63,498 nucleotides of DNA from a virus (lineage: Duplodnaviria; Caudoviricetes): the IMG/VR virus record IMGVR_UViG_3300025430_000019, positions 1 to 63,498 of that record; one strand, given 5' to 3'. The notes under the pieces are model-generated. The model saw only the letters and a list, made by a program, of their open reading frames with translations, did not search any database and had not been told where the DNA came from. Position numbers and translations under genes: made by a program. Below are positions 15,111-36,553 of this stretch, one piece after another. Positions within the stretch are counted from its first letter, which is position 1. Each line of letters begins with the position of its first letter.

Positions 15111-15118
15111 GACAAATG

Positions 15119-15193: not shown

Positions 15194-15199
15194 AACTGA

Positions 15200-15227
15200 A
15201 ATATACACTAAAAAATACAAAAGTCAA
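15200..15227 (-). promoter_or_regulatory. Sigma70-type promoter
   Basis: TTGACT-16nt-TATATT right after the capsid-gene terminator. Confidence 0.6.
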
Positions 15228-15254
15228 TAAAAATGGGAGCCGAAGCCCCCATTT
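15228..15254 (-). terminator. Intrinsic terminator after major capsid gene
   Basis: ATGGGGGC-TTCG-GCTCCCAT then TTTT. Confidence 0.8.
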
Positions 15255-15258
15255 ATTT

Positions 15259-16161: not shown

Positions 16162-16174
16162 TTTATGTTACTCC

Positions 16175-18849: not shown

Positions 18850-19033
18850 CGTCGGAATGCTCCAAGTGTTTTATGAGGTCGTTTGCGTAATCACGTGCGA
18901 ACGATAGACCTCGAATCTCGCCGCACAATCTTGAATACTCGTTATGGTCAACGCATTGTCCTCCGCTAACCCATTGTCTTAACGAGTCAACTTTTTTGTC
19001 TATCTCGTTAATTACTGTTTCGAGTTCTCTCAT
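18842..19033 (-). CDS. Hypothetical protein
   Basis: EYSRLCGEIRGL motif; between portal and GroES. Confidence 0.6.
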   Translation of the reverse strand: MRELETVINEIDKKVDSLRQWVSGGQCVDHNEYSRLCGEIRGLSFARDYANDLIKHLEHSDDD

Positions 19034-21602: not shown

Positions 21603-23132
21603 TTAATAATATGATTTGCGCCGGTTGGACTTGAAGTAAATTACTTCGTCCTCTTCGTCGGAGTCAAGGCGAATGAAGCCGCCCTTGCGAAAACGTATGA
21701 TTGCTTGGGATGTGGAGTCAACCAAGTCGTCGTGTTCTCCTGACGGGAAACTTGCTATTTCTTCAACTACTTCTTCAGCCCATGATGTTCTTGGCACCCA
21801 GACCCTGCCACTAGCAAATATATCCGCACAGGAATTTAACCTCGCTACTTTATCATTTCCTGCTGATGGTGTGAAGTCTTGAACGGGGATGCCCATCGCC
21901 CTCATCTCAGCTACTAGGGGAGCACCCGACGCCTTAGCCTCTATTATGATTGAATCTGGACTCCAGTCTTTATATTGTTCGTACGCAACTTTCTTGAGTT
22001 CTGGAAACTCCATGCGCCGTTTAAATGAATTAAGCAAAATAATATTTGCCTGGTTAACGCCTCTATCGTCTGGGCGGTCAAAGATACCCCACGTTGTACA
22101 AGCTGAGTAGTCGCTTCGCTGGGTTTTAAGAAATGCAGTATCCCAAGACTGAATAATGAAGTTGACGTAGGGCGGGTGATCTTCTTCCCACCACTGCCAC
22201 CATTCGCGTTTGATAATCGCTGATACATCGCTGGTTGGCTGCTGCATGTACTGCGCCATCCACTTAGCATTAGGAAGTTCTTGGTGAAGCGCTTCTAATT
22301 CATCAATGTTCCAAAATTCTGGCCATAGGGGTTTACCCGAAGGTAATATAGCTGGAAACTCGATCACTTCCCAGTTTTCCCCCGAGCGTTGTGCAGCTGC
22401 TTTTAAGACTTGTCCCGTTAAATCTTTCTTAGACCAGCGGGTCATAACCATAATAATAGAACCACCAGGCTGCAGACGCTGCCTTGGACCTGACGTATAC
22501 CACTCGTAAGTCTTGTCGTAAATCTCTGGGTTGGTTTCGCTTAGCGCCGCTTCTTGCTCAGAGTGCGGGTCGTCAATAATGAGAATGTCCGCGCCCTTAC
22601 CTGTGACAGCACCGCCCACACCGATAGCAAAATAGTCTCCGCCCTCGTTAGTTGCCCACCTGCCAGCTGCCTTGGAATCAGACTGGAGTCCAACTCCAGG
22701 GAAAATTGACTTATATACATCTGAGTCCACAAGATTACGGACCTTTCTTCCGAAACCCACGGCGAGTTCAGCAGTATGAGATGTCTGGATAACTTTTTTC
22801 TTTGGGAATTTACCCAAAAACCAAGCAGGTAATAAGTAAGAAGCAAATTCAGACTTAGTATGGCGCGGAGGCATATTAATAATAAGTCGTTTGATCTCCC
22901 CGTTAGCCACTCTTTCAAACGCCCTAGCCATTTTTGCATGATGTGCTCCGTCGATGAACCCAGGCCAGACTTTATGGGCAAAATCCATGAAGTTGTTCTG
23001 GCAGTTCTCTTTATGTTTAACTTCTAGCGTAGTATCTAGCTGCTCTAGCATCACACGTAGCTCAGAATCCGACAACTTGTCCAGATTATTAAGTAAAAAC
23101 TGGATCTCAGTTGCGTTATTCGGGCTGATCAT
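21603..23132 (-). CDS. terL: Terminase large subunit
   Basis: MPPRHTKS Walker A, IIDDPH Walker B, QSWDTA...HDDLVDS nuclease motifs. Confidence 0.93.
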   Translation of the reverse strand: MISPNNATEIQFLLNNLDKLSDSELRVMLEQLDTTLEVKHKENCQNNFMDFAHKVWPGFIDGAHHAKMARAFERVANGEIKRLIINMPPRHTKSEFASYLLPAWFLGKFPKKKVIQTSHTAELAVGFGRKVRNLVDSDVYKSIFPGVGLQSDSKAAGRWATNEGGDYFAIGVGGAVTGKGADILIIDDPHSEQEAALSETNPEIYDKTYEWYTSGPRQRLQPGGSIIMVMTRWSKKDLTGQVLKAAAQRSGENWEVIEFPAILPSGKPLWPEFWNIDELEALHQELPNAKWMAQYMQQPTSDVSAIIKREWWQWWEEDHPPYVNFIIQSWDTAFLKTQRSDYSACTTWGIFDRPDDRGVNQANIILLNSFKRRMEFPELKKVAYEQYKDWSPDSIIIEAKASGAPLVAEMRAMGIPVQDFTPSAGNDKVARLNSCADIFASGRVWVPRTSWAEEVVEEIASFPSGEHDDLVDSTSQAIIRFRKGGFIRLDSDEEDEVIYFKSNRRKSYY

Positions 23133-23718
23133 TAACTTCTACGTCCGTAATATCGAGAGAATTGGCTAATTTTTCGTGTGTTGGGGTGTTTTCGAACGTA
23201 TTTAACTGCATTAATGTTCGAATTCTGTCCCGAATTGCCTCTTTTAACTCGTCAGAAGTCTTGTGTGTGATGGTAATTTCTTGTTTTTCAGTGAATAAAT
23301 CGGACGCTTTGCCCAGTAATTCAAGCGCTTTTAGTGCAGTTCTGTTGTCATCGTCATTTGAGATCTGCAATAAGCGGTTCATTACTATTGTTCTGACCTG
23401 AACCTTGTCGCTTATGACCTGCTTCTCGTACTCATTAATATAACCAGCAAGTTGAAGTGCAACGCCGGGGCGTTTCATATCCTCGCGGGTCTGAGCCTGT
23501 GCAGTTTTATCTGTTTTTTTACCGAGATTTCGGAACATTTCAATGGCTTTTTCGTTTTCCTCCTCGGATAAATCGAAAGTGGCGCCATCACCTAGCTCTT
23601 GTAATAACAGAGCAGTGTTCCCCATGACTTTTGCATGGTCGTTTAGATCTTCCATTTCCATAGCGTCAGCTACGATGGGTATAGGTTTGTCGAGAGTTGG
23701 CTCAACTTGAATATTCAT
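23116..23718 (-). CDS. terS: Putative terminase small subunit (start revised to MNIQVE)
   Basis: ALKALELLGK...LFTEK motif; upstream of and overlapping terL; AAGGTG SD before ATG 23718. Confidence 0.6.
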   Translation of the reverse strand: MNIQVEPTLDKPIPIVADAMEMEDLNDHAKVMGNTALLLQELGDGATFDLSEEENEKAIEMFRNLGKKTDKTAQAQTREDMKRPGVALQLAGYINEYEKQVISDKVQVRTIVMNRLLQISNDDDNRTALKALELLGKASDLFTEKQEITITHKTSDELKEAIRDRIRTLMQLNTFENTPTHEKLANSLDITDVEVNDQPE

Positions 23719-23953
23719 AACACCTTTTTGTGGGTATCGGTGGGCGTAGTATAGCAAAAGTTTTTTGAAAAATATATACCCCCCGGGGGTCGAACGAAAT
23801 TTTAGTGACGGGGGGGTTTCGTATAACAGAGAATAGGATGAAGTGTAAGCAGCGCTTCCAAATCTATTTTTGGAAATCGAGTGAGCAAAGTAATGTGTGA
23901 AGTCTCCCCAGGGGCAAGGCGTCAAAATAGGGTCATAGGGGTATAGTGGGGTC

Positions 23954-23980
23954 GACATAGTAACAATACGTTATTTTGTC
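23954..23980. repeat. 27-bp palindromic site 1
   Basis: GACATAGTAAC-AATAC-GTTATTTTGTC. Confidence 0.85.
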
Positions 23981-24009
23981 CTTTTCTAAACTATTTTTGT
24001 TGTATTTAT

Positions 24010-24046
24010 ACAAACGACGATAAATAGTGGGAAAGTGTGGTAATAT
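24010..24046 (+). promoter_or_regulatory. Early promoter P1 (extended -10, degenerate -35)
   Basis: ACAAACG..GTGGG..TGTGG-TAATAT, aligns without gaps to P2 and P3. Confidence 0.65.
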
Positions 24047-24094
24047 CAACCCGTCGATTAATTCCGATCGACATAACTAACAGGAGATACTCAT

Positions 24095-24751
24095 ATGAGT
24101 ACAGAGAAAACAGTAGTTGAATCTACATTGACAGTCGATCAAACCGCATCCTTTGACGATATCGGTTCAACACTCGGCGCTAGTGATATCGACAGAGATA
24201 CAGCGATTGATCTATTCTTTAACCTAGTATTTGTCAATGGTAACGTTGACTATACATTATGGGTTGATGGTTCTAAGCGCATCATGAATGCTTATGCTAT
24301 TAAAAAAGGTATCAAGTGCATTATGAACGATGGAACATTAAACCCAACAGTTAAAACAATGTGGACAAGGTTTACAAAGGACGTAGCTGATAAACATGGT
24401 ATCGTAAAACCTACAAAGCCAACTACTGAGGCTAAAGCAAAAAGCGAGCAAAGGGCTAAAGCTGAAGCTAAACTCGAAGTACTCAAAGCTAAACCAGTAG
24501 AAGAGTTACAAGCTGAGTTAAAGTCTAAGCTGGCTAACCCTACTACTTCAAGTCTTAATGAGGCTAAAGCAATCACTAAAGCAATTGAGGCTAAAGCAAA
24601 GGATATCGAAAAGGCTGAGGATGAGGCTACGAAAACAGTCCGCAAATCGATCAAGGATATGCTAGCGAAAATTGATAGCTACTCTGATTTGGTTGATATT
24701 GAGACATACATTGTAGATATGATTAGCAACCATAGCCCTGCAACATTCTAA
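24095..24751 (+). CDS. Early protein, paralog A
   Basis: AGGAG SD; LNPTVKTMWTRF...HGIVKPTKPT shared with 25507-26142. Confidence 0.8.
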   Translation: MSTEKTVVESTLTVDQTASFDDIGSTLGASDIDRDTAIDLFFNLVFVNGNVDYTLWVDGSKRIMNAYAIKKGIKCIMNDGTLNPTVKTMWTRFTKDVADKHGIVKPTKPTTEAKAKSEQRAKAEAKLEVLKAKPVEELQAELKSKLANPTTSSLNEAKAITKAIEAKAKDIEKAEDEATKTVRKSIKDMLAKIDSYSDLVDIETYIVDMISNHSPATF

Positions 24752-24761
24752 AATCTAGTAA

Positions 24762-24788
24762 GACAGAGTTACAAATTGTAACTTTGTC
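24762..24788. repeat. 27-bp palindromic site 2
   Basis: GACAGAGTTAC-AAATT-GTAACTTTGTC. Confidence 0.9.
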
Positions 24789-24796
24789 CAATTAGC

Positions 24797-24821
24797 AAAG
24801 CCTCCCTAGGGAGGCTTTTTT
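24797..24821 (+). terminator. Intrinsic terminator
   Basis: AAAGCCTCC-CTAG-GGAGGCTTT then TTT. Confidence 0.85.
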
Positions 24822-24899
24822 GTTGTCTCTGCTTTGCGTGTAACGCAAAGTGTAGCATAGATTTTCAGCAAAATCAAATTATTTTTAAAATTTTTTTAG

Positions 24900-25300
24900 G
24901 GAACTGGTTGTAAGCGACGAACTAGCCCCAATCATAGAAAATCCTTAGCACCACGTGATTAAGACTTAGTTACAAAGTGTTACTTTGTCCTGTAATGTTC
25001 GAAAAATCGAGCAATGTTCGCCGTATTGTTCCACGTAAGTTGTTGATTTTAAAGCAAAGTTCTATTGTTCGTATTGTTCCGACAAAAAAAGTACTTTCTG
25101 AAATCTAAAACGGTCTTCGCATGGTGTAAGCAATCATAGAAAATCTTTAGCATCACGTGTTTAATTTCAGTTTCGAGATATAAATAATATAACAATATAA
25201 CATTAGAACACTATACTATTCAATACAATGTTCCTCAATGAAATCAACAACTTACAAAACTTGATAATGTTCCAAGCACTAGAACATTACAGAACATTGC
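24900..25300. other. Origin/packaging-like non-coding region
   Basis: 29-bp direct repeat (24929, 25131), 15-bp inverted repeat with IHF consensus (25035, 25241), multiple TGTTC/GAACA motifs, AT-rich tracts. Confidence 0.5.
24963..24989. repeat. 27-bp palindromic site 3
   Basis: GACTTAGTTAC-AAAGT-GTTACTTTGTC. Confidence 0.9.
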
Positions 25301-25383
25301 CACAAATTAATACTTCGTAACTAGTTTACACCTAACCCGTATTACATTACGTTTCAAATATCGCTGCCTAAATTTTAAGCAGG

Positions 25384-25420
25384 ACAAACGCTTGACATGA
25401 GTGGGATTTTGTGGTAATAT
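25384..25420 (+). promoter_or_regulatory. Early promoter P2
   Basis: TTGACA-17nt-TAATAT with TG extension. Confidence 0.85.
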
Positions 25421-25451
25421 AGGGCTTCGCCCGTTAGAAATAACGAAGCGA

Positions 25452-25478
25452 GACAAAGTTACATTTCGTTACTTTGTC
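25452..25478. repeat. 27-bp palindromic site 4
   Basis: GACAAAGTTAC-ATTTC-GTTACTTTGTC. Confidence 0.9.
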
Positions 25479-25506
25479 CTTAACCTAAACTTACTGGAGA
25501 GAAACC

Positions 25507-26142
25507 ATGTCATTAGAGAAAACAACAGTATCCGAAGCAGTTGCACAACTTACTGGGCAACAAGTTGCTATCTTCAAATCCCTCGGTGCAGTATTCGCAG
25601 AAAATGAGATGTCGCTTGATTCATCCCTTGATTCATTTAAAGACAACGTGATCATCGAATCGCAGGTTGATTATTATTTGTGGGAAGCAGGCTCACTTGA
25701 GTGGAAGCAGGGATATGCCGAGACAAAGCGAATTAAACTGTACATGACCGATAACACGCTTAACCCAACAGTCAAAACCGCATGGTCACGCTATACCAAA
25801 GCACTAGGTGATAGGCATGGTATCGTGAAGCCTACAAAGCCAACGAGTACTGCAAGCGCTAAGGCATCCCAACGTGCAGGGAACAAAGCGAAAGTGGACG
25901 AGTTGAAAACCAAATCGTTCGATGAACTTGAAGCATTGCTCAAGGGTAAACTAGTGCACCCAACAACGCAGTCCCTCAAGGAAGCAAAGCCCATTCAACA
26001 GGCAATCGAAGCCAAGAAACAAGATATTGTTAAGGCAGAGAATGAGGAGACAAAAGCAATTAAGAAAGCTCTAGTCGAGTGGATGAACGATCAGTCGTAC
26101 GAAACGCTTTACAACCTCGCCGTTAATTACGGTGCGATCTAA
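25507..26142 (+). CDS. Early protein, paralog B
   Basis: GGAG SD; LNPTVKTAWSRY...HGIVKPTKPT. Confidence 0.8.
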   Translation: MSLEKTTVSEAVAQLTGQQVAIFKSLGAVFAENEMSLDSSLDSFKDNVIIESQVDYYLWEAGSLEWKQGYAETKRIKLYMTDNTLNPTVKTAWSRYTKALGDRHGIVKPTKPTSTASAKASQRAGNKAKVDELKTKSFDELEALLKGKLVHPTTQSLKEAKPIQQAIEAKKQDIVKAENEETKAIKKALVEWMNDQSYETLYNLAVNYGAI

Positions 26143-26164
26143 GCAAATCCAACGCTCGGCAACT

Positions 26165-26182
26165 GCCCCTTCGGGGGCTATT
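26165..26182 (+). terminator. Putative weak terminator
   Basis: GCCCC-TTCG-GGGGC, poor U-tract. Confidence 0.5.
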
Positions 26183-26189
26183 GTCGTGG

Positions 26190-26226
26190 ACAAACGCTTG
26201 ACACAAGTGGGATTTTGTGGTATACT
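26190..26226 (+). promoter_or_regulatory. Early promoter P3
   Basis: TTGACA-17nt-TATACT with TG extension; near-identical to P2. Confidence 0.85.
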
Positions 26227-26258
26227 GTACGTTCAGTACAGTAAATTATTTCAACAAC

Positions 26259-26285
26259 GACAAAGTTACATCTCGTTACTTTGTC
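26259..26285. repeat. 27-bp palindromic site 5
   Basis: GACAAAGTTAC-ATCTC-GTTACTTTGTC. Confidence 0.9.
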
Positions 26286-26301
26286 CCAACAGGAGAGCAT
26301 C

Positions 26302-26496
26302 ATGCAAGTAAAACTTAACCCGACAATCCAAGCACTTGATCGCAAGTTCAACGTGCTATATACAAAACAACTAAGCGACATTCAAGGCATGGCATACGGT
26401 GTGCGTGAGGATTTCGAGCAGGGCGATCGACGCATTACGTTTAATCAATGCTATAACAATGCAAGTAAAACTATCGCATGGTGGATGCCAGTATGA
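26302..26496 (+). CDS. Hypothetical early protein (start MQVKLN)
   Basis: AGGAG SD before ATG 26302. Confidence 0.65.
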   Translation: MQVKLNPTIQALDRKFNVLYTKQLSDIQGMAYGVREDFEQGDRRITFNQCYNNASKTIAWWMPV

Positions 26497-26705
26497 GCGA
26501 CCATCCGCTTTGTACCCAATGCTTTAGCGACACCGTTTCCCCGAAGCGTGTGTTGCTAGGCTACACGGTATGCCTAGAGTGTGGCGAAGCAAACGCCGAG
26601 CGACAAGCTAGGTTGCGTACCGTAGTTCCGATGAACAAGTCCAACTATATATTAGTTAGCGACTTGTCACTTCTTAAACAACTTAACCCAAAGAGAACAA
26701 CATGA
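26493..26705 (+). CDS. Small C4 zinc-finger protein
   Basis: CTQC...R..LGYTVCLECGE; ATGA coupling. Confidence 0.65.
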   Translation: MSDHPLCTQCFSDTVSPKRVLLGYTVCLECGEANAERQARLRTVVPMNKSNYILVSDLSLLKQLNPKRTT

Positions 26706-26998
26706 CAATTAAACCACAGGCACTTAACATTGAGCGACTAATCAGCCTCGGTATGTACGAGACTAGGAATGAGAGCGCAGCACCCTCAGCATACGCTATG
26801 CTTGAGCAATGCGTGAGCGAAACGCTGGAAGAGATCGAGTCTATATCCGACGAGTTAATCTCTGTTCGCAAGAACGGCATCAGCCGTGACCACATCGACC
26901 TCGTAGTGTTCGATGCGCAATCAAGGCTAGCCAGACTAATGGTCAGACTGAACGACACAGTATCGGAATGCAACTATGTCCATGAGGGAGAAGTATGA
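26702..26998 (+). CDS. Hypothetical protein
   Basis: ATGA-coupled ORF. Confidence 0.6.
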   Translation: MTIKPQALNIERLISLGMYETRNESAAPSAYAMLEQCVSETLEEIESISDELISVRKNGISRDHIDLVVFDAQSRLARLMVRLNDTVSECNYVHEGEV

Positions 26999-27204
26999 GC
27001 CACTACCACTTACCGATATGCACGAACTGTTATAGCGTTCGTGTTCCACCACGCAATGCACATAGATTGCGTCCAGTTTGCGAGCGATGCGAAGACTCAA
27101 CTACGTTGATGCAAGACTCCAACTCCAAGCTATCCAAATGGTTAGCTACTCGTGTTGACTCACGACGCATCGTAACAACCAATACTAGGAAATCAAATGA
27201 TTGA
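26995..27204 (+). CDS. Small zinc-finger protein
   Basis: CTNC...CERC; GGAG SD. Confidence 0.6.
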   Translation: MSHYHLPICTNCYSVRVPPRNAHRLRPVCERCEDSTTLMQDSNSKLSKWLATRVDSRRIVTTNTRKSND

Positions 27205-27391
27205 AATATCAATGACCGAGTTATTATTATTTACGTGGGGCGCAGTCATGACTCTGCTCTATTTCAAAACCCAGACCGAATACAAGGAAGCTGAGTATCT
27301 GTTCAGTAAGACTTTGTATCTTATCGCAAAGAAGAAAGCCGTCCTCATTGACGACGGTGACACCTGCCACTTAAAGGGAATAGATGAATAA
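27197..27391 (+). CDS. Small membrane-anchored protein
   Basis: N-terminal hydrophobic segment; AGGA SD. Confidence 0.6.
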   Translation: MIEISMTELLLFTWGAVMTLLYFKTQTEYKEAEYLFSKTLYLIAKKKAVLIDDGDTCHLKGIDE

Positions 27392-27494
27392 AGAAAAAGT
27401 ACAACACTTCGTGGTTAATGCTATGTTCACAATCGTGTACGTATTTTGCATTGCCGTTATGTTTATGGATGCTCTAGTATGGCGTCCTCACTAG
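27384..27494 (+). CDS. 36-aa membrane peptide (not in ORF track)
   Basis: MNKEKVQHFVVNAMFTIVYVFCIAVMFMDALVWRPH; AAGGGA SD. Confidence 0.6.
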   Translation: MNKEKVQHFVVNAMFTIVYVFCIAVMFMDALVWRPH

Positions 27495-27520
27495 ACAAAG
27501 TTACATCCCGTAACTATGTC
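27494..27520. repeat. 27-bp palindromic site 6
   Basis: GACAAAGTTAC-ATCCC-GTAACTATGTC. Confidence 0.9.
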
Positions 27521-27540
27521 CAACAACCCAAGGAAACAAA

Positions 27541-27963
27541 ATGAAAAGAAGTAACTCAAAGAAAGCAACGGTTCTCAAGATGTTAGCCAAGCATCACTCA
27601 CCGAAAGACGTAGCCAAGCAAGCTGGTTGCTCTATTGCATATGTGTATAGCGTGCGTCATGCTGAGAAGATTAAATCTAAGTTCTCTCCGCCGAAGCTAC
27701 CCAAGCCTACGATTGTTGAGAAGCATTGGATACCCGACGCAACAATACCCGAAGGCTACATTCAAATCTCAAATGCCGAGCACGATATGTTAATCAAGAA
27801 CGCATCCAAGGGTAGAGCATACGATAGTGTGCGTGAACGCAACGAAGAACTCGAAGCGCAGTATGCACTATGCGAAGAACAACTCCACATGGAACAATGC
27901 AAAGTGTTTGACCTCAAAGCTATCGTTAAATATTTAGAGGAGAAACTAAATGCCAACAACTAA
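27541..27963 (+). CDS. HTH-containing protein with coiled coil
   Basis: SPKDVAKQAGCSIAYVYSVR helix-turn-helix pattern. Confidence 0.6.
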   Translation: MKRSNSKKATVLKMLAKHHSPKDVAKQAGCSIAYVYSVRHAEKIKSKFSPPKLPKPTIVEKHWIPDATIPEGYIQISNAEHDMLIKNASKGRAYDSVRERNEELEAQYALCEEQLHMEQCKVFDLKAIVKYLEEKLNANN

Positions 27964-28924
27964 GATCAATCTTGGTCATGGAAACTGTGCTAGTATCCCG
28001 CAAATCTCATCGTATGCTCAAGCACAGGCACATTACAACTTTGTCAAACCGATACGTGGCGACGACCAAGTGCGACCGATTGGGGCACGACGCTTTAAGT
28101 GGTATACCATTAACAAGCGAGACTACATCGAAGATGCACCGATGTATAGCGCAACGCTAGTTAATACGAACTTAGTCGAGTACTACCACGACGGACGTAT
28201 TAGCATAACCACAGGTGGTTATAGATCAGTGACGAACAACTCATTCCTCAACTTTGTGTTGATGGGCTTGGGCAATGTCGTATCTGTTAGTGGCAAATGG
28301 TATTGGAAACCACATCGTAGCGACAAGTACTATTACTTTCCGATACAACGAAACCATTGGTTGCACCTCGACGAGCAAGGCATACCGACTAATCCAGTAC
28401 AAGAGTACAAGAACTTGATCAACCGCAAAGCAATGAACGCAATACGAAAGAAGTATATGCCGATCATAGAATACGGTCGTCTGATGTTAACGGCTGACCA
28501 AGTTGTACCGTTAAGAATTGTTCATGAGTTACAGGCTGAGTTAAAAAATGTCTTGTCGTTCAAGGTAATGTCTAAACGTATGTATTTTTGGAATACTGAG
28601 TCTAAAGAGCAATACAAGAATGGTATTGCCAAATCCATTGAGTATCTTGACAAGGCGCTTGATACCAACGACTTAGATATGTTCTATAACATAACAATGC
28701 TTATGGCTAATCAGTATGGGCATTACTCATACGTTAGAGAAACAACTACTTGTTCACCCAAGGAGTTCAGAGCAGGATTCGACTTGTACCTCAGGGAAAT
28801 ATATTGGCAAGATGTATTCATCCAAGAGGAACAACCGATAGGCAAGGCGTTTTATGATGCGTACGCATCGTTTCTCGCCAATAAGAAGGACACAGTTACA
28901 GTTCGTAACTATGTCGTTAAGTAA
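27950..28924 (+). CDS. Hypothetical protein
   Basis: 324-aa ORF with GAGGAG SD. Confidence 0.7.
   Translation: MPTTKINLGHGNCASIPQISSYAQAQAHYNFVKPIRGDDQVRPIGARRFKWYTINKRDYIEDAPMYSATLVNTNLVEYYHDGRISITTGGYRSVTNNSFLNFVLMGLGNVVSVSGKWYWKPHRSDKYYYFPIQRNHWLHLDEQGIPTNPVQEYKNLINRKAMNAIRKKYMPIIEYGRLMLTADQVVPLRIVHELQAELKNVLSFKVMSKRMYFWNTESKEQYKNGIAKSIEYLDKALDTNDLDMFYNITMLMANQYGHYSYVRETTTCSPKEFRAGFDLYLREIYWQDVFIQEEQPIGKAFYDAYASFLANKKDTVTVRNYVVK
28889..28915. repeat. 27-bp palindromic site 7 (inside CDS 3' end)
   Basis: GACACAGTTAC-AGTTC-GTAACTATGTC. Confidence 0.85.
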
Positions 28925-28957
28925 GTTAGTTAATCATCCACAGAAAAGGAAATCAAA

Positions 28958-30052
28958 ATGTCAGAAGTATTCTTAAACAAAACCGCATCCCTCAAAGAAG
29001 CAGAGGACTTGATCGTAGCTTGTGGCGCAGATGCTACCATTCACCTAGTAGGCGAGCCTGGTGTGGGCAAAACATCTATGTTCAAAAATATTGTACAGAG
29101 AACGGATCATAAAGGGATTTACATCGACGCACCAAACATCGAGCTTGGCGAGTTAGGTATACCAATCCCTGATCACGCAACAAAAACAACTCGTATGTAT
29201 CCAAACGAGCAATGGGGTTTTCATCTCAACGAGCCACTTGTTATCTTTATTGACGAGTTCACCAAAGGTCATCAAGCAGTTCAGAATATGTTGCATCCTA
29301 TGCTCAACGAACCACGTATGATCATGGGCATACCGTTACATCCCGAAACTATTGTTGTAACCGCAGGTAACTTTACAGGCGACGGAGTAGGCGACAACAT
29401 GAAGGCGCATAGCCGTAACCGAGTATCAGTTGTTGCAGTACGCAAGCCACACGCAGGCTTTAACGTAGATGGTTCCGTTGATGAAGACTCATGGGGCGCA
29501 TGGGCAATCAAGCATGACATAGCCCCCGAGATTCTTGCATGGGTTAAGGAAACACCACATACTCTTGCATCATATCTTGACCCTGCACAAAGCGGTAACA
29601 AGTACATCTTCAATCCGAAGGAAGCACAGAAGTCTTTTGTTAGTCCACGTTCCCTTGCTAGAGCATCGCATATTTTGAAACGCAGATCCCAAAGCACCGA
29701 AAACGCAATCATTACTGCGCTCGAAGGTACGATAGGCGCACCTGCATCACGTGATCTTATGGCATACGTTAAGGTGGCTGACAGCTTACCGACGTGGGAA
29801 TCCATAGTGCGTGACCCTGACGTAGCGACTGTTCCGTCATCACCTGCGGCTCTGTGTTTACTTGCGTTTAGCGCCGTTCAACGCGTCGACCGAGACTCAA
29901 TCGGTAAGTTCTTTACGTATCTCAAACGTACACCGAAAGAGTTGCAGTCCGTGTTCTGTTTGACTGGCATGGCTAACGCTGACAAGAAGAAGCTATTCAT
30001 GACTAGCCAATCGTTCATTGACTGGATGCGTACCAATCAATACTTATTCTAA
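28958..30052 (+). CDS. MoxR-like AAA+ ATPase
   Basis: Walker A GEPGVGKT, Walker B IFIDEF, AGN sensor, SPRS. Confidence 0.85.
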   Translation: MSEVFLNKTASLKEAEDLIVACGADATIHLVGEPGVGKTSMFKNIVQRTDHKGIYIDAPNIELGELGIPIPDHATKTTRMYPNEQWGFHLNEPLVIFIDEFTKGHQAVQNMLHPMLNEPRMIMGIPLHPETIVVTAGNFTGDGVGDNMKAHSRNRVSVVAVRKPHAGFNVDGSVDEDSWGAWAIKHDIAPEILAWVKETPHTLASYLDPAQSGNKYIFNPKEAQKSFVSPRSLARASHILKRRSQSTENAIITALEGTIGAPASRDLMAYVKVADSLPTWESIVRDPDVATVPSSPAALCLLAFSAVQRVDRDSIGKFFTYLKRTPKELQSVFCLTGMANADKKKLFMTSQSFIDWMRTNQYLF

Positions 30053-30056
30053 ACAC

Positions 30057-30083
30057 GACAGAGTAACACTTTGTAACTTTGTC
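30057..30083. repeat. 27-bp palindromic site 8
   Basis: GACAGAGTAAC-ACTTT-GTAACTTTGTC. Confidence 0.9.
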
Positions 30084-30101
30084 TCAACCAAGGAAATATA
30101 A

Positions 30102-31295
30102 ATGAGTAACTTAACTGCAGAACAACGCATCGAAAGATGCCACGTTCAATTAATGAAACACCCAAGCTTTTGCTTGTTCTCAGGTTTGTTTATGGTGGGT
30201 AAGGTTAGTGTCGATGACAAGACACCGACTGCTAAAACCAACGGTCTTGACGTAACATACGGCAGAGATTTTGTTGGCTCACTCAACGACAAACAACTAG
30301 GCTTTCTTATTCTCCACGAGAATATGCACAAAGCGTATCGTCACCTGGTCGTTTGGAAGACTCTATACAAGCGTAATAGATGGCTTGCCAATGCAGCGTG
30401 CGACTACGTTATTAACTTACAACTCATGGACTATGACCCACATGGACAGGACATCGAGTTCCCAACCGATAAGGATGGCAACCAGATTGGTCTCGTTGAT
30501 GAGAAGTATCGGGGCATGGATGCACACCAAGTGTTTCTTAAATTACTTGAGGAACATGGCGACGTTCAACCCCCCGATGGTGACGAAGGACTCGACGATC
30601 ATGACTGGGAAAGTGCGGAGGAGATGACCGACAAGGAGAAAGAAGAAGCGGCGAAGGAAATCGAAGATGCTCTACGTCAGGGTCAGATACTTGTTGGCAA
30701 GATGAAGGGTAACGTATCACGTGAGGTTCAAGACTTACTTACGCCGAAGGTAGATTGGAAAGAAGCATTGCGTGACTTTATCAAATCAACAACTGCAGGT
30801 AAAGACCAGACGACATGGCGACGACTGCACAAGCGGTACATCGGTATGGATATTGTTATGCCTAGCACATTCGACGAGAAAGTCGGACCTATTACTGTGG
30901 CAATAGATACGTCAGGAAGTATCGGCCACGAGGAACTCGCTCAATTCTTATCCGAGGTTAAGCTAATCTGTGAAGAAGTCAGACCTGAGAAGTTGGACAT
31001 ACTGTACTGGGATACTCGCGTAGCAGGGCATGAGGTTTACTCCGATGCCGAACTTGCTAATGTTGTTTACGTAACCGAAGCCAAGGGCGGTGGTGGTACT
31101 GAACCTTCGTGTGTACCTAAGTATATGCGCAAGCACAACATGACTCCCGAGTGTCTTATTATGCTAACAGATGGTTACATTGGCGACCAGACTCGCAACG
31201 ACTGGTCAATCAATTCTCCAATCATGTGGTGTATCAAAGGCAACAACCACTTCGACAACGCTAGCGTGACAGGAAAGGTTGTTCATGTCGAGTGA
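30102..31295 (+). CDS. DUF2201-like metallopeptidase plus vWA domain protein
   Basis: HENMH (HExxH), NAACDYVIN, MIDAS DTSGS, GGGT, LTDG. Confidence 0.85.
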   Translation: MSNLTAEQRIERCHVQLMKHPSFCLFSGLFMVGKVSVDDKTPTAKTNGLDVTYGRDFVGSLNDKQLGFLILHENMHKAYRHLVVWKTLYKRNRWLANAACDYVINLQLMDYDPHGQDIEFPTDKDGNQIGLVDEKYRGMDAHQVFLKLLEEHGDVQPPDGDEGLDDHDWESAEEMTDKEKEEAAKEIEDALRQGQILVGKMKGNVSREVQDLLTPKVDWKEALRDFIKSTTAGKDQTTWRRLHKRYIGMDIVMPSTFDEKVGPITVAIDTSGSIGHEELAQFLSEVKLICEEVRPEKLDILYWDTRVAGHEVYSDAELANVVYVTEAKGGGGTEPSCVPKYMRKHNMTPECLIMLTDGYIGDQTRNDWSINSPIMWCIKGNNHFDNASVTGKVVHVE

Positions 31296-31509
31296 GATAA
31301 AAGATTGGTGTGTAATTCGGGTCTATCACCGTAGGCTCGAAACAGTCAGCAACGACTTTGTGCGGTACGAAGCCGCCAACGTATTCAATGCTCCACCACA
31401 CAAGCGTATGGGTGTGGAGTACTTGACCAAAGAAGAAGCAGAAGCAATGGCTAAATTTTTAAACTTTATTGAGGAATCAAATGAAAGAAACGATAGTACC
31501 CCAAGGTAG
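31285..31509 (+). CDS. Hypothetical protein
   Basis: ORF overlapping both neighbours; start uncertain. Confidence 0.5.
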   Translation: MSSEIKDWCVIRVYHRRLETVSNDFVRYEAANVFNAPPHKRMGVEYLTKEEAEAMAKFLNFIEESNERNDSTPR

Positions 31510-31666
31510 GAAGTTAGACAACAAAGTAAACATAAGTCTTAACCGTGAGACCGTTGAACAGTTGGCGAAGTTCAAAGACAGACTCGGAGAAGTGCTGGGT
31601 GTAGAGCTATCCTATGCTCAAGCTATACAGTACTTAATTAAACATCAACCAACCAAGACAGAGTAA
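31481..31666 (+). CDS. Putative ribbon-helix-helix-like DNA-binding protein
   Basis: KVNISLNRETVEQL...LSYAQAIQYLI; GAGGA SD. Confidence 0.5.
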   Translation: MKETIVPQGRKLDNKVNISLNRETVEQLAKFKDRLGEVLGVELSYAQAIQYLIKHQPTKTE

Positions 31667-31683
31667 CAGTTTGTAACTTTGTC
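31657..31683. repeat. 27-bp palindromic site 9 (contains stop codon of upstream gene)
   Basis: GACAGAGTAAC-AGTTT-GTAACTTTGTC. Confidence 0.9.
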
Positions 31684-31709
31684 CATCTTTAATACACAGG
31701 AGAATTCAT

Positions 31710-32579
31710 ATGACAACAGAAAACAGTATTTCAATCGCATCATCATCAATGCTAGTAGAGTTATCAATCAGTACTTGGACTGCACGTAAGTTAGACAAGC
31801 GTGTATCAGCCGAGGTTGATCTCGCAAAGGGTACTAAGACACAGGCAGGTAACTACAACAAGAATCTGCTTGCAGGTACAGGGGTGTTGGAAAACATTAC
31901 CAAGTACGCATCCAATGCGAGAGCATGGCATATTAAACAAACATTACCTTGGTCTGACAGTGGCTTGCGTTTGTTACCGATGACTAACTTCATTGCGTAC
32001 AAGGAACAACTCAATCAGCTAGAACAGAACTACGACGCTTTAGTTTCTAAGTTCCTGATAGCCTACCCTGAGTTGGTATCAGCAGCTGCGTTTCAATTAG
32101 GTTCACTCTTTAATAGAGACGAGTACCCTGAGTCACACAAGATTGCAACCAAGTTCAAGTTCTCTTACAACTTCCTTCCAGTACCAATGGCAGGTGACTT
32201 CCGTATCGACATCAACGAAGAAGCGAAGAACGAGATCATCGAGTCATGCCGTAAGATGTATGACGAGCGTCTTAACAACGCAATGCGTGATGCGTGGACT
32301 AGGTTGCACACTTGCCTCATTCACTTGAGCGAGAGGTTAGCCCCAACCGAACAAGGTGAACGTAAGATATTCAGAGACACATTAGTAGAGAATACGAAAG
32401 AGTTACTGGAGTTATTAAAACATTTTAATCTCACACATGACCCGAAGCTTGATCAGGCTAGGCAGGAATTGCAACAAGCGTTAGGCGCACACACGGCTGA
32501 CACATTGCGTGACATGGAGATGGCACGTGAGACAGTCAAGGCTAGAGTCGATGAGATTCTTGGTAAATTTAATTGGTAA
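31710..32579 (+). CDS. DUF3150-like protein
   Basis: MLVELSISTWTARKLD...TLPWSDSGLRLLP...LGSLFNRDEYP. Confidence 0.55.
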   Translation: MTTENSISIASSSMLVELSISTWTARKLDKRVSAEVDLAKGTKTQAGNYNKNLLAGTGVLENITKYASNARAWHIKQTLPWSDSGLRLLPMTNFIAYKEQLNQLEQNYDALVSKFLIAYPELVSAAAFQLGSLFNRDEYPESHKIATKFKFSYNFLPVPMAGDFRIDINEEAKNEIIESCRKMYDERLNNAMRDAWTRLHTCLIHLSERLAPTEQGERKIFRDTLVENTKELLELLKHFNLTHDPKLDQARQELQQALGAHTADTLRDMEMARETVKARVDEILGKFNW

Positions 32580-32588
32580 GGAAATATT

Positions 32589-33458
32589 ATGTTAACAATA
32601 AACAGAGATCAACTAAACATAGACAAACGGCAGACACCGATACATCCTGATTTGGAGAAGTTTGCAACGCAAGTATCATTCGCTAAACCTTTGTGTACAT
32701 TTATAGCATTGAAAGATTGTTTTAAGAACGTATACCATGAAGGGAATTGGAGTGACTATATATACAAGCTACATATCTACCAAAACGGTGATAAGGTAGG
32801 CGAAGTATTTGTAGATACCCATTACAAGCAAGGTACTAACGAGCGTGAATCAATCTACGGCATCAAGTCTTTTCGCATAGAAAAAAGCCGAGGTGATCGT
32901 AACTCAACTACATCCAGAGATATGAAGGTAGCCCTACGTATTGCTAAGAAAACGCTTGTTGCGAGAGAGCTGGAAGAAATGCGTAGTGTCATTGACGACA
33001 AGGTACGTGGTTGCATCGGTAATATAATGTACCGCACGACAGGTATGTTGACGTACACTATGGATATAAACCATGAAGCCCAGTTGTATGCAATATCAGC
33101 GTATCAAGCTAGGAAGAAAGGCGAAACAACTGTTACTGTACCTGCGCATCCCGTGACTGTAACCGCTAGCAAGCTTAACGACCACACCATTGCGTGCGAT
33201 TTGTATATGGAAATATATGCACTTAAACAGTATCTCAAAGCTAACACAGGATACGGCATTAAAGTAATGGCTGACGACAGTATCATAATGCTAACGTATA
33301 GTACGGGCGAATTGTCTCGCTTAAGTTCTTATCATGAGTTACCCGATAGTATTCAGTCTAAGTTTGCGATGTTCAAGGTACTCAAGGATGACGAGCCGTA
33401 TGCGCATCTTGGTTGTAAATTTAACGAGAATATATTTTATATAGCCCCCGATACTTGA
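32589..33458 (+). CDS. Hypothetical protein
   Basis: 289-aa ORF with AAGGA SD. Confidence 0.7.
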   Translation: MLTINRDQLNIDKRQTPIHPDLEKFATQVSFAKPLCTFIALKDCFKNVYHEGNWSDYIYKLHIYQNGDKVGEVFVDTHYKQGTNERESIYGIKSFRIEKSRGDRNSTTSRDMKVALRIAKKTLVARELEEMRSVIDDKVRGCIGNIMYRTTGMLTYTMDINHEAQLYAISAYQARKKGETTVTVPAHPVTVTASKLNDHTIACDLYMEIYALKQYLKANTGYGIKVMADDSIIMLTYSTGELSRLSSYHELPDSIQSKFAMFKVLKDDEPYAHLGCKFNENIFYIAPDT

Positions 33459-33464
33459 TACAAT

Positions 33465-33588
33465 ACACACAGAATCCTCCTGTGGATTTCTCTGGACTGT
33501 GATACGTTGACCTAACAGATGTTTGCGTAACTAAAACAAGTCTCTCCTCACCGCAAGTAGGATGCGGAATCTGTTTAGCCTACACACT
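33465..33588 (+). ncRNA. Putative structured RNA in 3' UTR
   Basis: AACAGAT/ATCTGTT stem enclosing TCCT/AGGA and CCGCA/TGCGG pseudoknot. Confidence 0.35.
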
Positions 33589-33613
33589 AAGCCCTCCTCG
33601 TGAGGGCTTTTTT
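33589..33613 (+). terminator. Intrinsic terminator ending early operon
   Basis: AAGCCCTC-CTCGT-GAGGGCTT then TTTT. Confidence 0.85.
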
Positions 33614-33617
33614 ATTG

Positions 33618-33644
33618 GACAAAGTTACATATTGTTACTTTGTC
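33618..33644. repeat. 27-bp palindromic site 10
   Basis: GACAAAGTTAC-ATATT-GTTACTTTGTC. Confidence 0.9.
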
Positions 33645-33672
33645 CTATTAGGGTTTTTTCCTAAAATATTTC

Positions 33673-33701
33673 TTGCAAAACCCTAGATTTAGGACTATAC
33701 T
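33673..33701 (+). promoter_or_regulatory. Sigma70-type promoter of replication operon
   Basis: TTGCAA-17nt-TATACT; overlapped by TAGGGTTTT/AAAACCCTA inverted repeat. Confidence 0.7.
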
Positions 33702-34548: not shown

Positions 34549-34754
34549 ACGATGGCATTGCAATAGTATTGCAACGCATGGAGACACATCCCGAAGAATT
34601 TTTTGGCACAGAAGACAAATGGAAGTTTATCTTTAAAGATTACTTTAGAGACTCAATGACCGAAACCGAAAAGGGTTTGATGTTTGACAAGATGAAGAAA
34701 TTACGTCGTGCTGAGTTTACTACGCTAGTAATGAAAACAATGGTGGAAGACTAA
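34545..34754 (+). CDS. Hypothetical protein (RMETxPEEF family, paralog)
   Basis: MNDGIAIVLQRMETHPEEF; ATGA coupling. Confidence 0.65.
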   Translation: MNDGIAIVLQRMETHPEEFFGTEDKWKFIFKDYFRDSMTETEKGLMFDKMKKLRRAEFTTLVMKTMVED

Positions 34755-36553
34755 TGCAAATAATTACAATCGACTTTGAGACTTATTACTCGCAAGAGTT
34801 TAGTCTCTCCAAGATGACGACAGAGGAATACGTTCGTGATGAGCGTTTCCAAGTTATTGGGTTTGCGTATCAGATAGATGATACTGAGCCACGTTGGGTG
34901 ACTGGAACAACTGAGCATATTAAAGCGCAACTCGAAGCCCTGCCTTGGAAGGACTCGTATGCCTTAGCACACAATGCTGTGTTTGACGGTGCAATTATGT
35001 CGTTTATTTTTGGCATCAAACCTAAGATGTGGCTTGATACACTTAGTATGGCAAGGGCAACCGATGGCTTAGAGGCAGGAAACTCGCTTGCTAAACTTGC
35101 TCAACGCTATGAGTTAGGTGTCAAAGGCACGGAAGTTGTACAAGCACTTGGTTATCGTCGTGAGAATTTTAATCCTGCGGAACTTGAAGCCTACGGAAAA
35201 TACTGTTGCAACGACGTCACTCTAACCTTTGACTTGTTTAATATATTGATTCAAAGGTTTTCTAAATCAGAACTGCAACTGATTGATCTGACTATTAGAA
35301 TGTTTACTGAACCTGTACTTAGACTCAACACGCCTGTACTGGAACAACATTTAATTAAAGTTAAAGCTCGCAAAGAAAAGTTACTTGAAGCTTGCGTATC
35401 AGATAAAGATACGTTGATGAGTAACCCAAAATTAGCTGAACTGCTTGAAGGACTTGGTGTTGAGATACCAATGAAGACCAGCCCTGCTACTGGAAAGGAA
35501 ACGTATGCCTTCGCAAAAAACGACGACGGGTTTAAAGCCCTTGCAGAACACCCTGACGAAAGAGTACAAGCGATTGTTGCAGCAAGATTGGGAACAAAAT
35601 CAACTCTTGAAGAAACAAGAACAGAAAGATTTATCTCTATCTCATTTCGAGGTGCGATGCCTGTCCCACTACGATACTACGCCGCACATACAGGACGTTG
35701 GGGAGGGGATGATAAACTCAACCTTCAAAATTTACCGAGACAATCACCTATTAAATCAGCAATTACGGCGCCTAATGGATTCAAGCTTATTGATGCCGAC
35801 TCGTCGCAAATCGAAGCAAGAACCTTAGCATGGCTTGCAGGGCAGAATGACTTAGTTGAAGCATTTGAAAAGGGCGAAGATGTATACAAGATTATGGCAT
35901 CGGCTATCTACGGCAAGGCTAGTGAAGAAATTACGAAGGATGAGAGGTTTGTGGGTAAGACGACCATCCTTGGTGCAGGCTACGGAATGGGGGCAGAAAA
36001 GTTTGCGCTTCAGCTTAAAACTTTTGGTGTTGAAATTGAGGTTGCGGAAGCAAAGCGAATCATCGATACGTATCGCAGCACATACCCACATATTGTTTCG
36101 CTATGGAAAGAAGCCAATAAATCGTTGGACGCATTGCGGTCATCGCAAACTACAACGGTTGGGGTACAACCCCAAGCGCTCTATATAACAGAGAATGGGT
36201 TTGTTCTACCAAGTGGGCTGTTTCTCAATTATCCTGATCTACAAAAAGATGACGAGAACCAATACAGTTATCACTCACGCCGTGGTCGCATTAAGATATA
36301 CGGCGGTAAAGTAGTTGAGAATATTTGTCAGGCTCTTGCTCGTTGCGTGATCGGTGAGCAAATGCTACGTATATCTAAGAAGTACAAAGTTGCTTTGACT
36401 GTACATGATGCGGTTATGGCAGTTGTACCTGAAGCTGAAGCTGAGGAAGCACAGAAGTACGTTGAAGAATGTATGCGTTGGAGACCTGAATGGGCTAAGA
36501 CATTACCACTCAACTGCGAGTCAGGTATCGGAGACAACTATGCAGAATGTTAA
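34754..36553 (+). CDS. polA: Family A DNA polymerase with 3'-5' exonuclease
   Basis: DFET, HNAVFD, YCCND exonuclease motifs; DSSQIEAR, KTTILGAGYG, TVHD polymerase motifs. Confidence 0.92.
   Translation: MQIITIDFETYYSQEFSLSKMTTEEYVRDERFQVIGFAYQIDDTEPRWVTGTTEHIKAQLEALPWKDSYALAHNAVFDGAIMSFIFGIKPKMWLDTLSMARATDGLEAGNSLAKLAQRYELGVKGTEVVQALGYRRENFNPAELEAYGKYCCNDVTLTFDLFNILIQRFSKSELQLIDLTIRMFTEPVLRLNTPVLEQHLIKVKARKEKLLEACVSDKDTLMSNPKLAELLEGLGVEIPMKTSPATGKETYAFAKNDDGFKALAEHPDERVQAIVAARLGTKSTLEETRTERFISISFRGAMPVPLRYYAAHTGRWGGDDKLNLQNLPRQSPIKSAITAPNGFKLIDADSSQIEARTLAWLAGQNDLVEAFEKGEDVYKIMASAIYGKASEEITKDERFVGKTTILGAGYGMGAEKFALQLKTFGVEIEVAEAKRIIDTYRSTYPHIVSLWKEANKSLDALRSSQTTTVGVQPQALYITENGFVLPSGLFLNYPDLQKDDENQYSYHSRRGRIKIYGGKVVENICQALARCVIGEQMLRISKKYKVALTVHDAVMAVVPEAEAEEAQKYVEECMRWRPEWAKTLPLNCESGIGDNYAEC

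Follow-up and report, generated by a model that had tools for sequence, protein, structure and literature searches.

The window treated here, that is the whole stretch of 63,498 bp that was analysed, is a complete IMG/VR virus record (IMGVR_UViG_3300025430_000019; Duplodnaviria; Caudoviricetes; CheckV 100% complete), and our subject is an array of palindromes in its early region, each made up of two 11-bp arms about a 5-nt spacer (11-5-11). The phage family is one of uncultured freshwater phages, and the literature that we searched held nothing describing this family or such an array. The early region is on the plus strand, between minus-strand packaging and structural genes on one side and a replication module on the other, which has a family A DNA polymerase and also a Hjc-like nuclease, an exonuclease, a helicase and a primase-helicase. 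The initial annotation, made from the letters of the window alone, had listed ten palindromes, and all ten are present at the positions given there, together with one degenerate copy. With their surroundings, including the open reading frames (ORFs) that they touch, they are:

23954-23980: site 1, GACATAGTAAC-AATAC-GTTATTTTGTC, right-arm inner GTTAT; at the divergent junction of late (minus strand) and early (plus strand) genes, overlapping the start codon (ATG) of ORF 23116-23958 on the minus strand, with the predicted weak -35 of promoter P1 following after 37 nt
24762-24788: site 2, between the stop of the paralog gene 24095-24751, which is 10 nt before it, and terminator T1, which is 9 nt after it
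24963-24989: site 3, non-coding, downstream of T1, with the weakest arms (8/11 pairs)
25452-25478: site 4, about +25 to +52 from promoter P2 in its 5' leader, with the ATG at 25507 following after 28 nt
26259-26285: site 5, about +27 to +53 from promoter P3 in its 5' leader, with the ATG at 26302 following after 16 nt
26954-26980: degenerate eleventh site, inside ORF 26702-26998, with 2-3 mismatches
27494-27520: site 6, followed after 20 nt by the ATG (27541) of a variable gene that we call the slot gene
28889-28915: site 7, among the final codons of ORF 27950-28924, ending 7 nt before its stop and 42 nt from the start of the AAA ATPase gene at 28958
30057-30083: site 8, between the stop of the AAA ATPase gene, which is 4 nt before it, and the ATG at 30102, which is 18 nt after it
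31657-31683: site 9, over the stop of the ribbon-helix-helix-like (RHH-like) ORF 31469-31666 and 26 nt before the ATG at 31710
33618-33644: site 10, at the end of the early block; terminator T2 is 8 nt before it and the -35 of promoter P4 follows after 28 nt

The search pattern GACANAGTWAC-N5-GTWACTWTGTC, allowed up to three mismatches on both strands, gave 22 matches at 11 places, these being the ten sites at 0-1 mismatch and the degenerate copy, whereas 100 dinucleotide shuffles used as a control gave a mean of 0.02 matches (sd 0.20, largest 2). At up to two mismatches the whole record had 11 matches in forward and 10 in reverse orientation, and a backwards control pattern had none in either. 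The scan of the complete record found zero sites beyond 23954-33644, so the restriction to the early region that had been claimed for the array holds, and an equal density over the genome is not seen. It had also been claimed that two of the sites overlap stop codons, but only site 9 does so (TAA at 31664-31666). The motif might have turned out to be the box of a host regulator, which the initial annotation saw as a reason to abandon its reading. We scanned 185,579 species genomes, with the full 27-bp pattern only, and found 7 stretches, of which six occur once each in unrelated taxa and the seventh is a piece of a phage of this group that had been binned wrongly; there was no recurrence in any species genome, and for the full 27-bp pattern a host regulator box is rejected.

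The AAA ATPase was used as a probe and gave 38 viral loci, of which 35 (AAA 72-84% identical) carry arrays. The three distant loci L076, L081 and L083 (AAA 31-44% identical) were left out of the typing, which covers 36 entries. Each of the 35 loci has 3-11 palindromes, all of them within about -5600 to +6000 of the AAA start, and the same positions recur at about -1600, -55, +1100, +2700 to +3000 and +4800 to +5200 relative to that start. The palindrome orthologous to site 7 is 49-70 nt upstream of the AAA gene in 36/36 typed entries, and that orthologous to site 6 is found in most relatives, about -1500 to -1700 before the AAA gene; the orthologue of site 8 is in types A, B and C and not in the other types. 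In the near-complete genomes G004, G006, G007 and G008 the strong sites (at least 8/11 pairs) fall almost wholly in one block of 9-10 kb, with a single 8/11 match outside the block in G006. In G007, whose terminal repeats are 127 bp long, the block occupies the stretch 4.6-14.6 kb from an end, and we found no support for the earlier suggestion that the array protects or partitions the DNA that enters the cell first.

There are at least 14 lineage-specific arm types among 199 unique sites, the statistics for which leave out site 1 of the window and the degenerate site as these failed a stricter filter. The window and G001 share the arm GACAnAGTWAC (type A), and other examples are GACAnAGTGKC, yACTTrGCGAC, yACATTCAGwC, CACAAATCGAA, GACAnnnTGAC, GACAAACTTAG, AACAAATCGAC and CACyAnnTGAC. 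The arm has a common anatomy, with an outer nAC(A/T) that is widely conserved, A/T-rich and mostly unpaired positions 5 and 6 (Watson-Crick pairs in 72/199 and 103/199 sites respectively) and an inner 4-5 bp that are type-specific. The palindromes are 27-29 bp long with a spacer of 5, 6 or 7 nt that varies even within one genome. Within the window the spacer has A at position 12 in 10/10 sites, compared with T at position 16 in 5/10 (Fisher p=0.03), and its one-sidedness is 5/5 to the same side (p=0.06). The rule that it starts with A and ends in a pyrimidine, giving co-oriented copies, thus stands for the window, but it is weak statistically and is broken in relatives, with A..G in site 1 of L007 and L008 and G..T in three G001 sites.

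With regard to closer relatives, the pattern scan of IMG/VR gave near-identical fragments and one contig, G001, of about 70% DNA identity, and a pattern scan of metagenomes gave 29 stretches. Among loci L011-L046 (n=36), 11 align to the window by blastn and L031 by tblastx, the others being isolated chance palindromes. G001 keeps ten sites with at most one mismatch at orthologous gene boundaries, with unrelated genes between some of the boundaries that it shares with the window. In L018, which is 85% identical, the sites differ by 5.9% and their flanks by 14.2% (p=0.0045), and the sites thus appear to be under selection. The degenerate copy at 26954 also has counterparts: its orthologue is perfect in L018 and in contigs of run X17 (26963 T>A, 26965 G>A), and G001 has a site at the end of the gene orthologous to that which holds it.

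Two observations on the wider family may be added here. The distant loci L081 and L083 (AAA 31-33% identical) have 6-8 copies of a different, 8-1-8 palindrome, TTCTGACA-A-TGTCAGAA. The MoxR-like AAA ATPase and a DUF2201 metallopeptidase/VWA protein (28958-31295) are a conserved pair, and the only cultured relatives found of this pair are genes of about 25% identity in phages of about 70 kb of Vibrio, Pseudomonas and other hosts.

The positions of the sites have to be seen in relation to the predicted promoters and terminators of the early region, all on the plus strand:

24797-24818, plus strand: intrinsic terminator T1
25382-25387, plus strand: lone outer-arm element GGACAA, 4 nt upstream of the P2 -35
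25392-25420, plus strand: early promoter P2, TTGACA-17-TAATAT with a TG extension, 10/12 matches
26188-26193, plus strand: lone outer-arm element GGACAA, 4 nt upstream of the P3 -35
26198-26226, plus strand: early promoter P3, TTGACA-17-TATACT with a TG extension, 11/12 matches
33589-33609, plus strand: intrinsic terminator T2, end of the early operon
33673-33701, plus strand: promoter P4 of the replication module, TTGCAA-17-TATACT

P2 and P3 are near-consensus sigma-70 promoters, and sites 4 and 5 are about 25-53 nt downstream of their predicted starts. The two promoter-leader-palindrome units are duplicated cassettes, and such a cassette recurs in types A, B, F, K6 and others. None of the sites of the window overlaps a -10 or -35 element, as the initial annotation had stated, but in the relatives G001, L053 and L078 there is a site that ends 9-12 nt upstream of a -35. 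We also considered whether the inner hexamer could be a decoy -35; this fits types F, M6 and C (CTGACA, TCGACA and GCGACA) and not K6, H, G, J and N.

The lone element, 4 nt upstream of the strong early -35, is the outer part of the arms of its own lineage. It reads GGACAA in types A, B, F, G and K6, GGGCAA in H, CCACC(A/T)A in F6 (for example CCACCAA), TACTTGG or TACTTAA in C, CCACAAA in D, TCACAAA in E, TAACAAA in I, CTACAAA in J, TAACATA in M6 and GAACCAAA in N, these letters coming from a scan of 27 of the 36 entries; a second promoter-element scan took in all 36. GACA is present upstream of the -35 in 16/18 unique promoters of GACA-type lineages and in 0/10 others (Fisher p=5e-6), or 5/6 against 0/8 if counted by type (p=0.003). 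The terminal site is preceded by a terminator-like hairpin and T-run in 27/28 loci, compared with 4/213 for other sites.

These placements bear on whether the palindromes are read as DNA or as RNA. The arms change together between types, but inside a type the variable positions fail to pair about as often as chance predicts: among unique type A sites there is a mismatch at position 9 in 16/27, and among unique type B sites at position 10 in 25/62, where about 22 would be expected if the arms were independent. The arm variation is thus non-compensatory, as had been claimed for the window. Sites 1, 3 and 10 are by prediction outside transcripts, again as claimed. The lone element is upstream of the start of transcription and yet covaries with the arms, and a reader acting on RNA cannot explain this covariation because of that position. 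The lack of compensation, the terminal site past a terminator and the covariation of the untranscribed lone element favour recognition as double-stranded DNA, as in the protein site that had been preferred to an RNA hairpin from the beginning.

The reading that we rank first, as did the initial annotation, and to which we would give about even confidence, is that the palindromes are operators, duplex-DNA sites for one or more phage-encoded and fast co-evolving regulators of the early operon, acting by roadblock or insulation in the manner of stoperators. The early operon would be driven by the host RNA polymerase and the binder or binders would be encoded by the phage and co-evolve with the sites. 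The arm would be bipartite, with an outer element conserved in broad classes (GACA, CACA/AACA, CACY and nACTT), a short A/T-rich linker that is not contacted and a lineage-specific inner core of 4-5 bp. We suggest that each arm may be bound largely independently, like a stoperator half, which would explain both the independent assortment of half-sites and the tolerance of spacers of 5-7 nt, and that the inverted pair would block polymerase from either side, so serving as a roadblock without orientation. The places occupied would be the 5' leaders of strong promoters, the side of the -35 by means of the lone element, nearly all early gene boundaries and the position behind the terminal terminator. 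As an early-made binder accumulated, the array would close down early transcription, or insulate it, and stop it from running into the replication module, and the placements in leaders, beside the -35 and behind the terminator fit such a role of an early-made protein.

Several observations, including the outcome of the search for a binder described below, weigh against the operator reading. The length of the spacer differs in type F6 (8 sites with 6 nt and 7 with 7 nt) and in type B (58 with 5 nt and 4 with 6 nt), and a variation of 1-2 nt should be poorly tolerated by a classical rigid dimer and easily by a hairpin loop. The distance from site 10 to the -35 of P4 ranges over 23-67 nt across loci, so no phased activator role can be argued for this site, and a phased activator of P4 was rejected. 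RNA hairpins are predicted in 9/11 copies, at -8.5 to -14.5 kcal/mol with z of -3.5 to -7.4. Most of the sites lie 14-42 nt upstream of start codons, just ahead of ribosome-binding regions, and are followed by a C/A-rich leader and a Shine-Dalgarno sequence. There is also a modest sense-strand bias in the mismatches (A.A 154 vs T.T 57; G.U 63 vs A.C 35).

Several of these points would suit an alternative in which the palindromes are RNA hairpins in a polycistronic early mRNA that set the fate or translation of each downstream cistron, whether as processing or stability signals, like the RNase III sites among the T7 early genes or protective stem-loops at 5' or 3' ends, or as RNA operators recognised by a phage protein, the two small C4 zinc-ribbon proteins being examples of what might bind. 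Palindromy is kept across 14 sequence types, the spacer is loop-like in being free in sequence and 5-7 nt long, and a universal small zinc-ribbon family is encoded within the block. However uncompensated U.U, A.A, G.A and U.C oppositions break the inner stem in 40-59% of type A and B sites, which is the rate expected of independent half-sites, and the lone element, although outside the transcript of its promoter, covaries with the arms. Furthermore 27/28 terminal sites are past an intrinsic terminator, and site 1 is upstream of the first promoter. In Rfam no family attains its gathering threshold; the best match, over site 2 and T1, is Phe_leader, which scores 41.4 bits where 55 are required, and there is none at the other sites. 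Taking both sides together we consider RNA hairpins unlikely.

To return to the operator reading, the search for a binder, by identity matrices, same-type regression, residues found only in type A and alignments of helices and strands, singled out no protein. Within the early region no protein of the window is closer to that of G001, which is of the same type A, than to those of phages of other types, and no universal family has an excess of residues unique to both type A genomes. The motif types differ by lineage, but from the sequences compared no protein family seems to track them convincingly. The candidates offered by the initial annotation are thus for the most part disfavoured, on grounds of covariation or universality, the early paralogs alone being still possible and unproven.

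The RHH-like protein (31469-31666) is in only 19/36 entries, being found in types A, B, E, H, I, J, M6 and N, and its beta-strand is nearly constant across types. The helix-turn-helix (HTH) protein 27541-27963, product of the slot gene, has no homologue in G001 despite the shared motif, the slot genes of the window and G001 having different N-terminal domains. The Cro-like HTH protein 43377-43628 is present in all relatives that cover its locus (14 of 18), and has a recognition helix that is almost invariant over 8 motif types. All three are disfavoured as binders.

With regard to the slot gene itself, it and its orthologues (30 loci) are a modular family with a shared zipper-like C-terminus, ...LKAIVKYLEEK or ...LKVIVSYLEGK, and at least four unrelated putative DNA-binding N-terminal domains, swapped irrespective of lineage or motif type.

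The Cro-like protein may have a site of its own. Between site 10 and P4 there is a second inverted repeat, TTAGGG-N6-CCTAA at 33648-33664, that is independent of type; in most relatives it has the form cTAGGG-N5-7-CCCTA, and it is found downstream of the terminal site in L047-L084 and in nearly all lineages. This repeat is a candidate operator of a conserved regulator, for example the Cro-like HTH protein with its invariant recognition helix.

The best remaining candidate binder, unproven, would be the family of the two early paralogs:

24095-24751, plus strand: early paralog 1, 218 aa, of the first-early family
25507-26142, plus strand: early paralog 2, 211 aa, of the same family

They remain candidates because the family is universal, very fast-evolving and all-helical. 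Universal proteins of 324 aa and 289 aa and the C4 zinc-ribbon proteins are also candidates. For the paralogs as for the 324-aa, 289-aa and zinc-ribbon proteins, the two type A genomes are no more alike than either is to genomes of other types. AlphaFold gave models with a predicted local distance difference test score (pLDDT) of 91 for the paralog and 87 for the 324-aa protein, and in Foldseek searches at E<=0.001 there was no PDB match for either model and none in BFVD for the paralog, which counts with the other points against an operator. A profile of the paralog run against PDB sequences gave only a weak match to a basic leucine zipper (bZIP) protein, TGA7 (E=0.0095), that is probably coiled-coil bias; the search for paralog homologues gave metagenomic proteins only, and a protein atlas gave no named relatives. 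The two small zinc-ribbon paralogs, 26478-26705 and 26995-27204, have the pattern CxxC-16-CxxC, a spacing which we take to be that of the RNA-binding protein Com of phage Mu, although Pfam gave no such match; the family of the first is present in 33 loci.

The history of the sites in close relatives has features that have to be accounted for by any of the readings. Site 10 is flipped to its reverse complement in L021, L033, L030 and a contig of run X20, and in the latter 5/12 differences over 4.6 kb fall in the 27-bp site 10. The spacer of site 9 is inverted in L030, and site 2 has variant letters at 24775, 24776 and 24784 in contigs of runs X17, X18 and X20. Sequence has also moved between sites, as site 2 of L018 is the site 4 sequence inverted, and site 1 of L022 resembles site 2. 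General hypermutability of the sites was rejected: the excess in L021 and L033 is one flip, and the sites of distant relatives are more conserved than their flanks.

Such changes could point to the sites being joints at which co-infecting relatives exchange early gene cassettes, either by homologous recombination at short shared sequences, as has been put forward for the promoter(early) stem-loops of T4-type phages, or by means of an unrecognised site-specific enzyme that acts on 11-(5-7)-11 core-like sites with heterologous spacers. The sites are at nearly all gene boundaries and the gene content between them varies. In comparison of the window with G001 the genes differ after sites 5b, 6 and 8, with the N-terminal domains of the slot gene swapped past site 6. 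Geometry of the arm-spacer-arm kind resembles the core sites of recombinases. In L008 and L046 site 2 has lost its left arm and its spacer to an insertion of about 250 bp with a small ORF, contigs of runs X18 and X20 have a mosaic breakpoint 31 nt past site 7, and a 194-bp deletion polymorphism starts 23 nt past site 5; the exchanges of sequence between sites in L018 and L022 may be added. However these cases are anecdotal, as only the one indel, at site 2, falls inside a site and the other breakpoints are 23-31 nt downstream or elsewhere, and breakpoints between genes would be expected to survive in any case. The lone promoter elements and the fixed place behind the terminator would be left without explanation, and recombination may be a side effect of the repeats and not their function. 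Among the proteins scanned with Pfam and PHROGs, which did not include every small ORF, there is no integrase, resolvase, recombinase or transposase, and this counts against the idea. We therefore regard recombination joints, which the initial annotation had also proposed, as very unlikely.

Some details of these rearrangements may be useful. The insertion (L008 7853-8114, the same in L046, compared with window 24757-24781) has an A/T-rich ORF of about 70 codons preceded by a palindrome, AACCTAGGG-GAAA-CCCTAGGTT. The polymorphism past site 5 (26308-26503) concerns a 64-codon ORF, 26302-26496, that is present or absent; L018, L039 and one contig of run X17 lack it and have 3 other letters where the ends meet. 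At the mosaic junction in the contigs of runs X18 and X20 there is CCCTAACA-A-TGTTAGGG, which is similar to the 8-1-8 palindrome of L081 and L083.

The flips are also relevant to another alternative, that the palindromes propagate or homogenise themselves in the manner of repetitive extragenic palindromic (REP) sequences. Correction templated by the hairpin, together with gene conversion, would keep the arms symmetric and the copies alike, and molecular drive would give the types, a sequence-specific reader having little or no part in it. This would agree with concerted evolution within genomes and no detectable covarying protein, with single-event flips of the central 9-11 nt in genomes that are 98-99% identical, with the concentration of 5/12 differences of a 4.6-kb contig in site 10, and with exchange between sites and the decaying copy at 26954. 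It is however at odds with positions that are syntenic in all lineages and not scattered, with the confinement to one class of transcription unit and with arms that are conserved relative to their flanks in diverged relatives, and conversion hardly explains a covarying lone promoter element of 6-8 nt. We rate it as most improbable.

The closest described systems are the stoperators of Cluster A mycobacteriophages, which have the same logic with other symmetry, distribution and life style, the extended start-associated sequences (ESAS) of Cluster K and the promoter(early) stem-loops (PeSLs) of T4-type phages. According to the published accounts, Cluster A repressors are monomers with two DNA-binding domains that bind 13-bp sites in promoters and short intergenic spaces and stop elongation, with a consensus that is lineage-specific (PMC9283540, PMC6550527). 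The present array is like the stoperators of L5, Bxb1 and TipsytheTRex, as these are described there, in having many copies of a motif in promoters and intergenic spaces, a lineage-specific consensus and a proposed block to both initiation and elongation, and a unit of about 11-13 bp that could take two adjacent recognition modules. However the stoperators of those accounts are asymmetric 13-mers oriented with transcription and spread genome-wide in temperate phages, whereas here we have inverted pairs with a 5-7 nt spacer in an early block of about 10 kb only. No orientation with transcription of the stoperator type is found, since these are inverted repeats and the weak spacer bias is flipped in relatives. 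In these phages we found no integrase, no immunity repressor and no homologous repressor of the Cluster A type.

The ESAS of Cluster K are likewise conserved in synteny with genome-specific differences in consensus, and their function is not known (PMC3203893). They have 17-bp arms and are coupled to a 13-bp asymmetric start-associated sequence (SAS) at the ribosome-binding site (PMC3203893); here there is no SAS-like partner, the 11-bp arms are bipartite and there is a lone arm element at promoters. The PeSLs are similar to the units at P2 and P3 in being small repeated cassettes of a strong sigma-70-like early promoter and a stem-loop between variable early genes, and they are implicated in insertion, deletion and replacement of genes, with stem-loops that are effective terminators accompanied by a promoter (PMC2839356, PMC4122927). 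Here the true terminators are separate, 8/10 palindromes have no promoter, none has a T-run and the arm sequence is strictly type-specific.

Other known systems are less close. The RNase III processing hairpins of T7 are repeated and lie between early cistrons transcribed by the host polymerase, as do the palindromes here, but the latter have 11-bp interrupted stems with uncompensated mismatches and some copies are outside predicted transcripts. REP sequences and bacterial interspersed mosaic elements (BIME) are short imperfect intergenic palindromes in operons, alike within a genome and different between lineages; REPs are numerous, non-syntenic and linked to RAYT transposases, in contrast to about 10 syntenic copies in one block with no such enzyme detected. 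N4-like phages have lineage-specific inverted-repeat hairpin promoters in the early region, which in N4 need a virion RNA polymerase, and distant homologues of the AAA ATPase/VWA gene pair (about 25% identity) are found in N4-like phages. However no phage RNA polymerase was found by searches of the large virion proteins against PHROGs, Pfam and PDB sequences, by tblastn against phages or by a scan for a DxDGD motif, the 2142-aa virion protein being an LPD39 or 'DarB-like' polyvalent protein. A hairpin promoter of the N4 type was rejected on that account, and the block is driven by near-consensus sigma-70 promoters.

The remaining features of the locus are given here for completeness. The genes that mark its two sides are:

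19030-21594, minus strand: portal
21603-23132, minus strand: terminase
34754-36553: family A DNA polymerase of the replication module

A direct repeat of 34 nt, 91% identical, is found at 24929-24962, where it abuts site 3, and at 25131-25164 with no palindrome after it. A non-coding element of about 32 nt, TTAGGGAACTGGTTGTAAGCGACGAACTAGCC (24896-24927), is near sites 1 and 3 and is kept across motif types, being found in L079 and L080 upstream of their first sites. The non-coding gap of about 400 nt between site 3 and P2 has (24990-25300) about a dozen WTGTTCY/RGAACAW repeats in both orientations, and the related 9-mers TTGGAACAA, AGAACAATA and AATGTTCCA are the most repeated words in several relatives; the repeats may be an iteron-like array or an origin.

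The tail-fibre-like genes 14409-17011 (minus strand) are up to 92% identical to those of G001, G007 and G008, far above the genome average, and are missing from G004 and G006. Their similarity suggests that hosts are shared across different motif types.

The rapid concerted diversification of the types hints, as a speculation, at conflict between relatives. The array would on this extension of the operator reading be a type-specific lock in conflicts between related lytic phages, the first phage to infect silencing the early genes of relatives with the same lock, which would amount to heteroimmunity without lysogeny, the bipartite arm being bound by a fast-evolving first-early protein. Conflict would explain why there are at least 14 types among phages with core proteins 72-84% identical and in some cases tail-fibre-like genes about 90% identical, why all the copies in a genome switch together with the promoter elements, and why the binder would evolve too fast to be tracked by overall similarity. 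We think this quite unlikely as it stands.

Even if the mechanism proposed is wrong, the covariation of the arms with an element at about -45 of the promoters and the strict presence of a site behind the terminator will need explaining. If the palindromes are operators as suggested, a modular operator code would regulate an early operon transcribed by the host polymerase, with an echo of that code at the promoters. The phages of this family would then hold a natural set of orthogonal repressor/operator pairs and would be a test case for a joint switch in specificity of a regulator and about ten dispersed sites, and possibly they would have in it a mechanism of exclusion between lytic phages.

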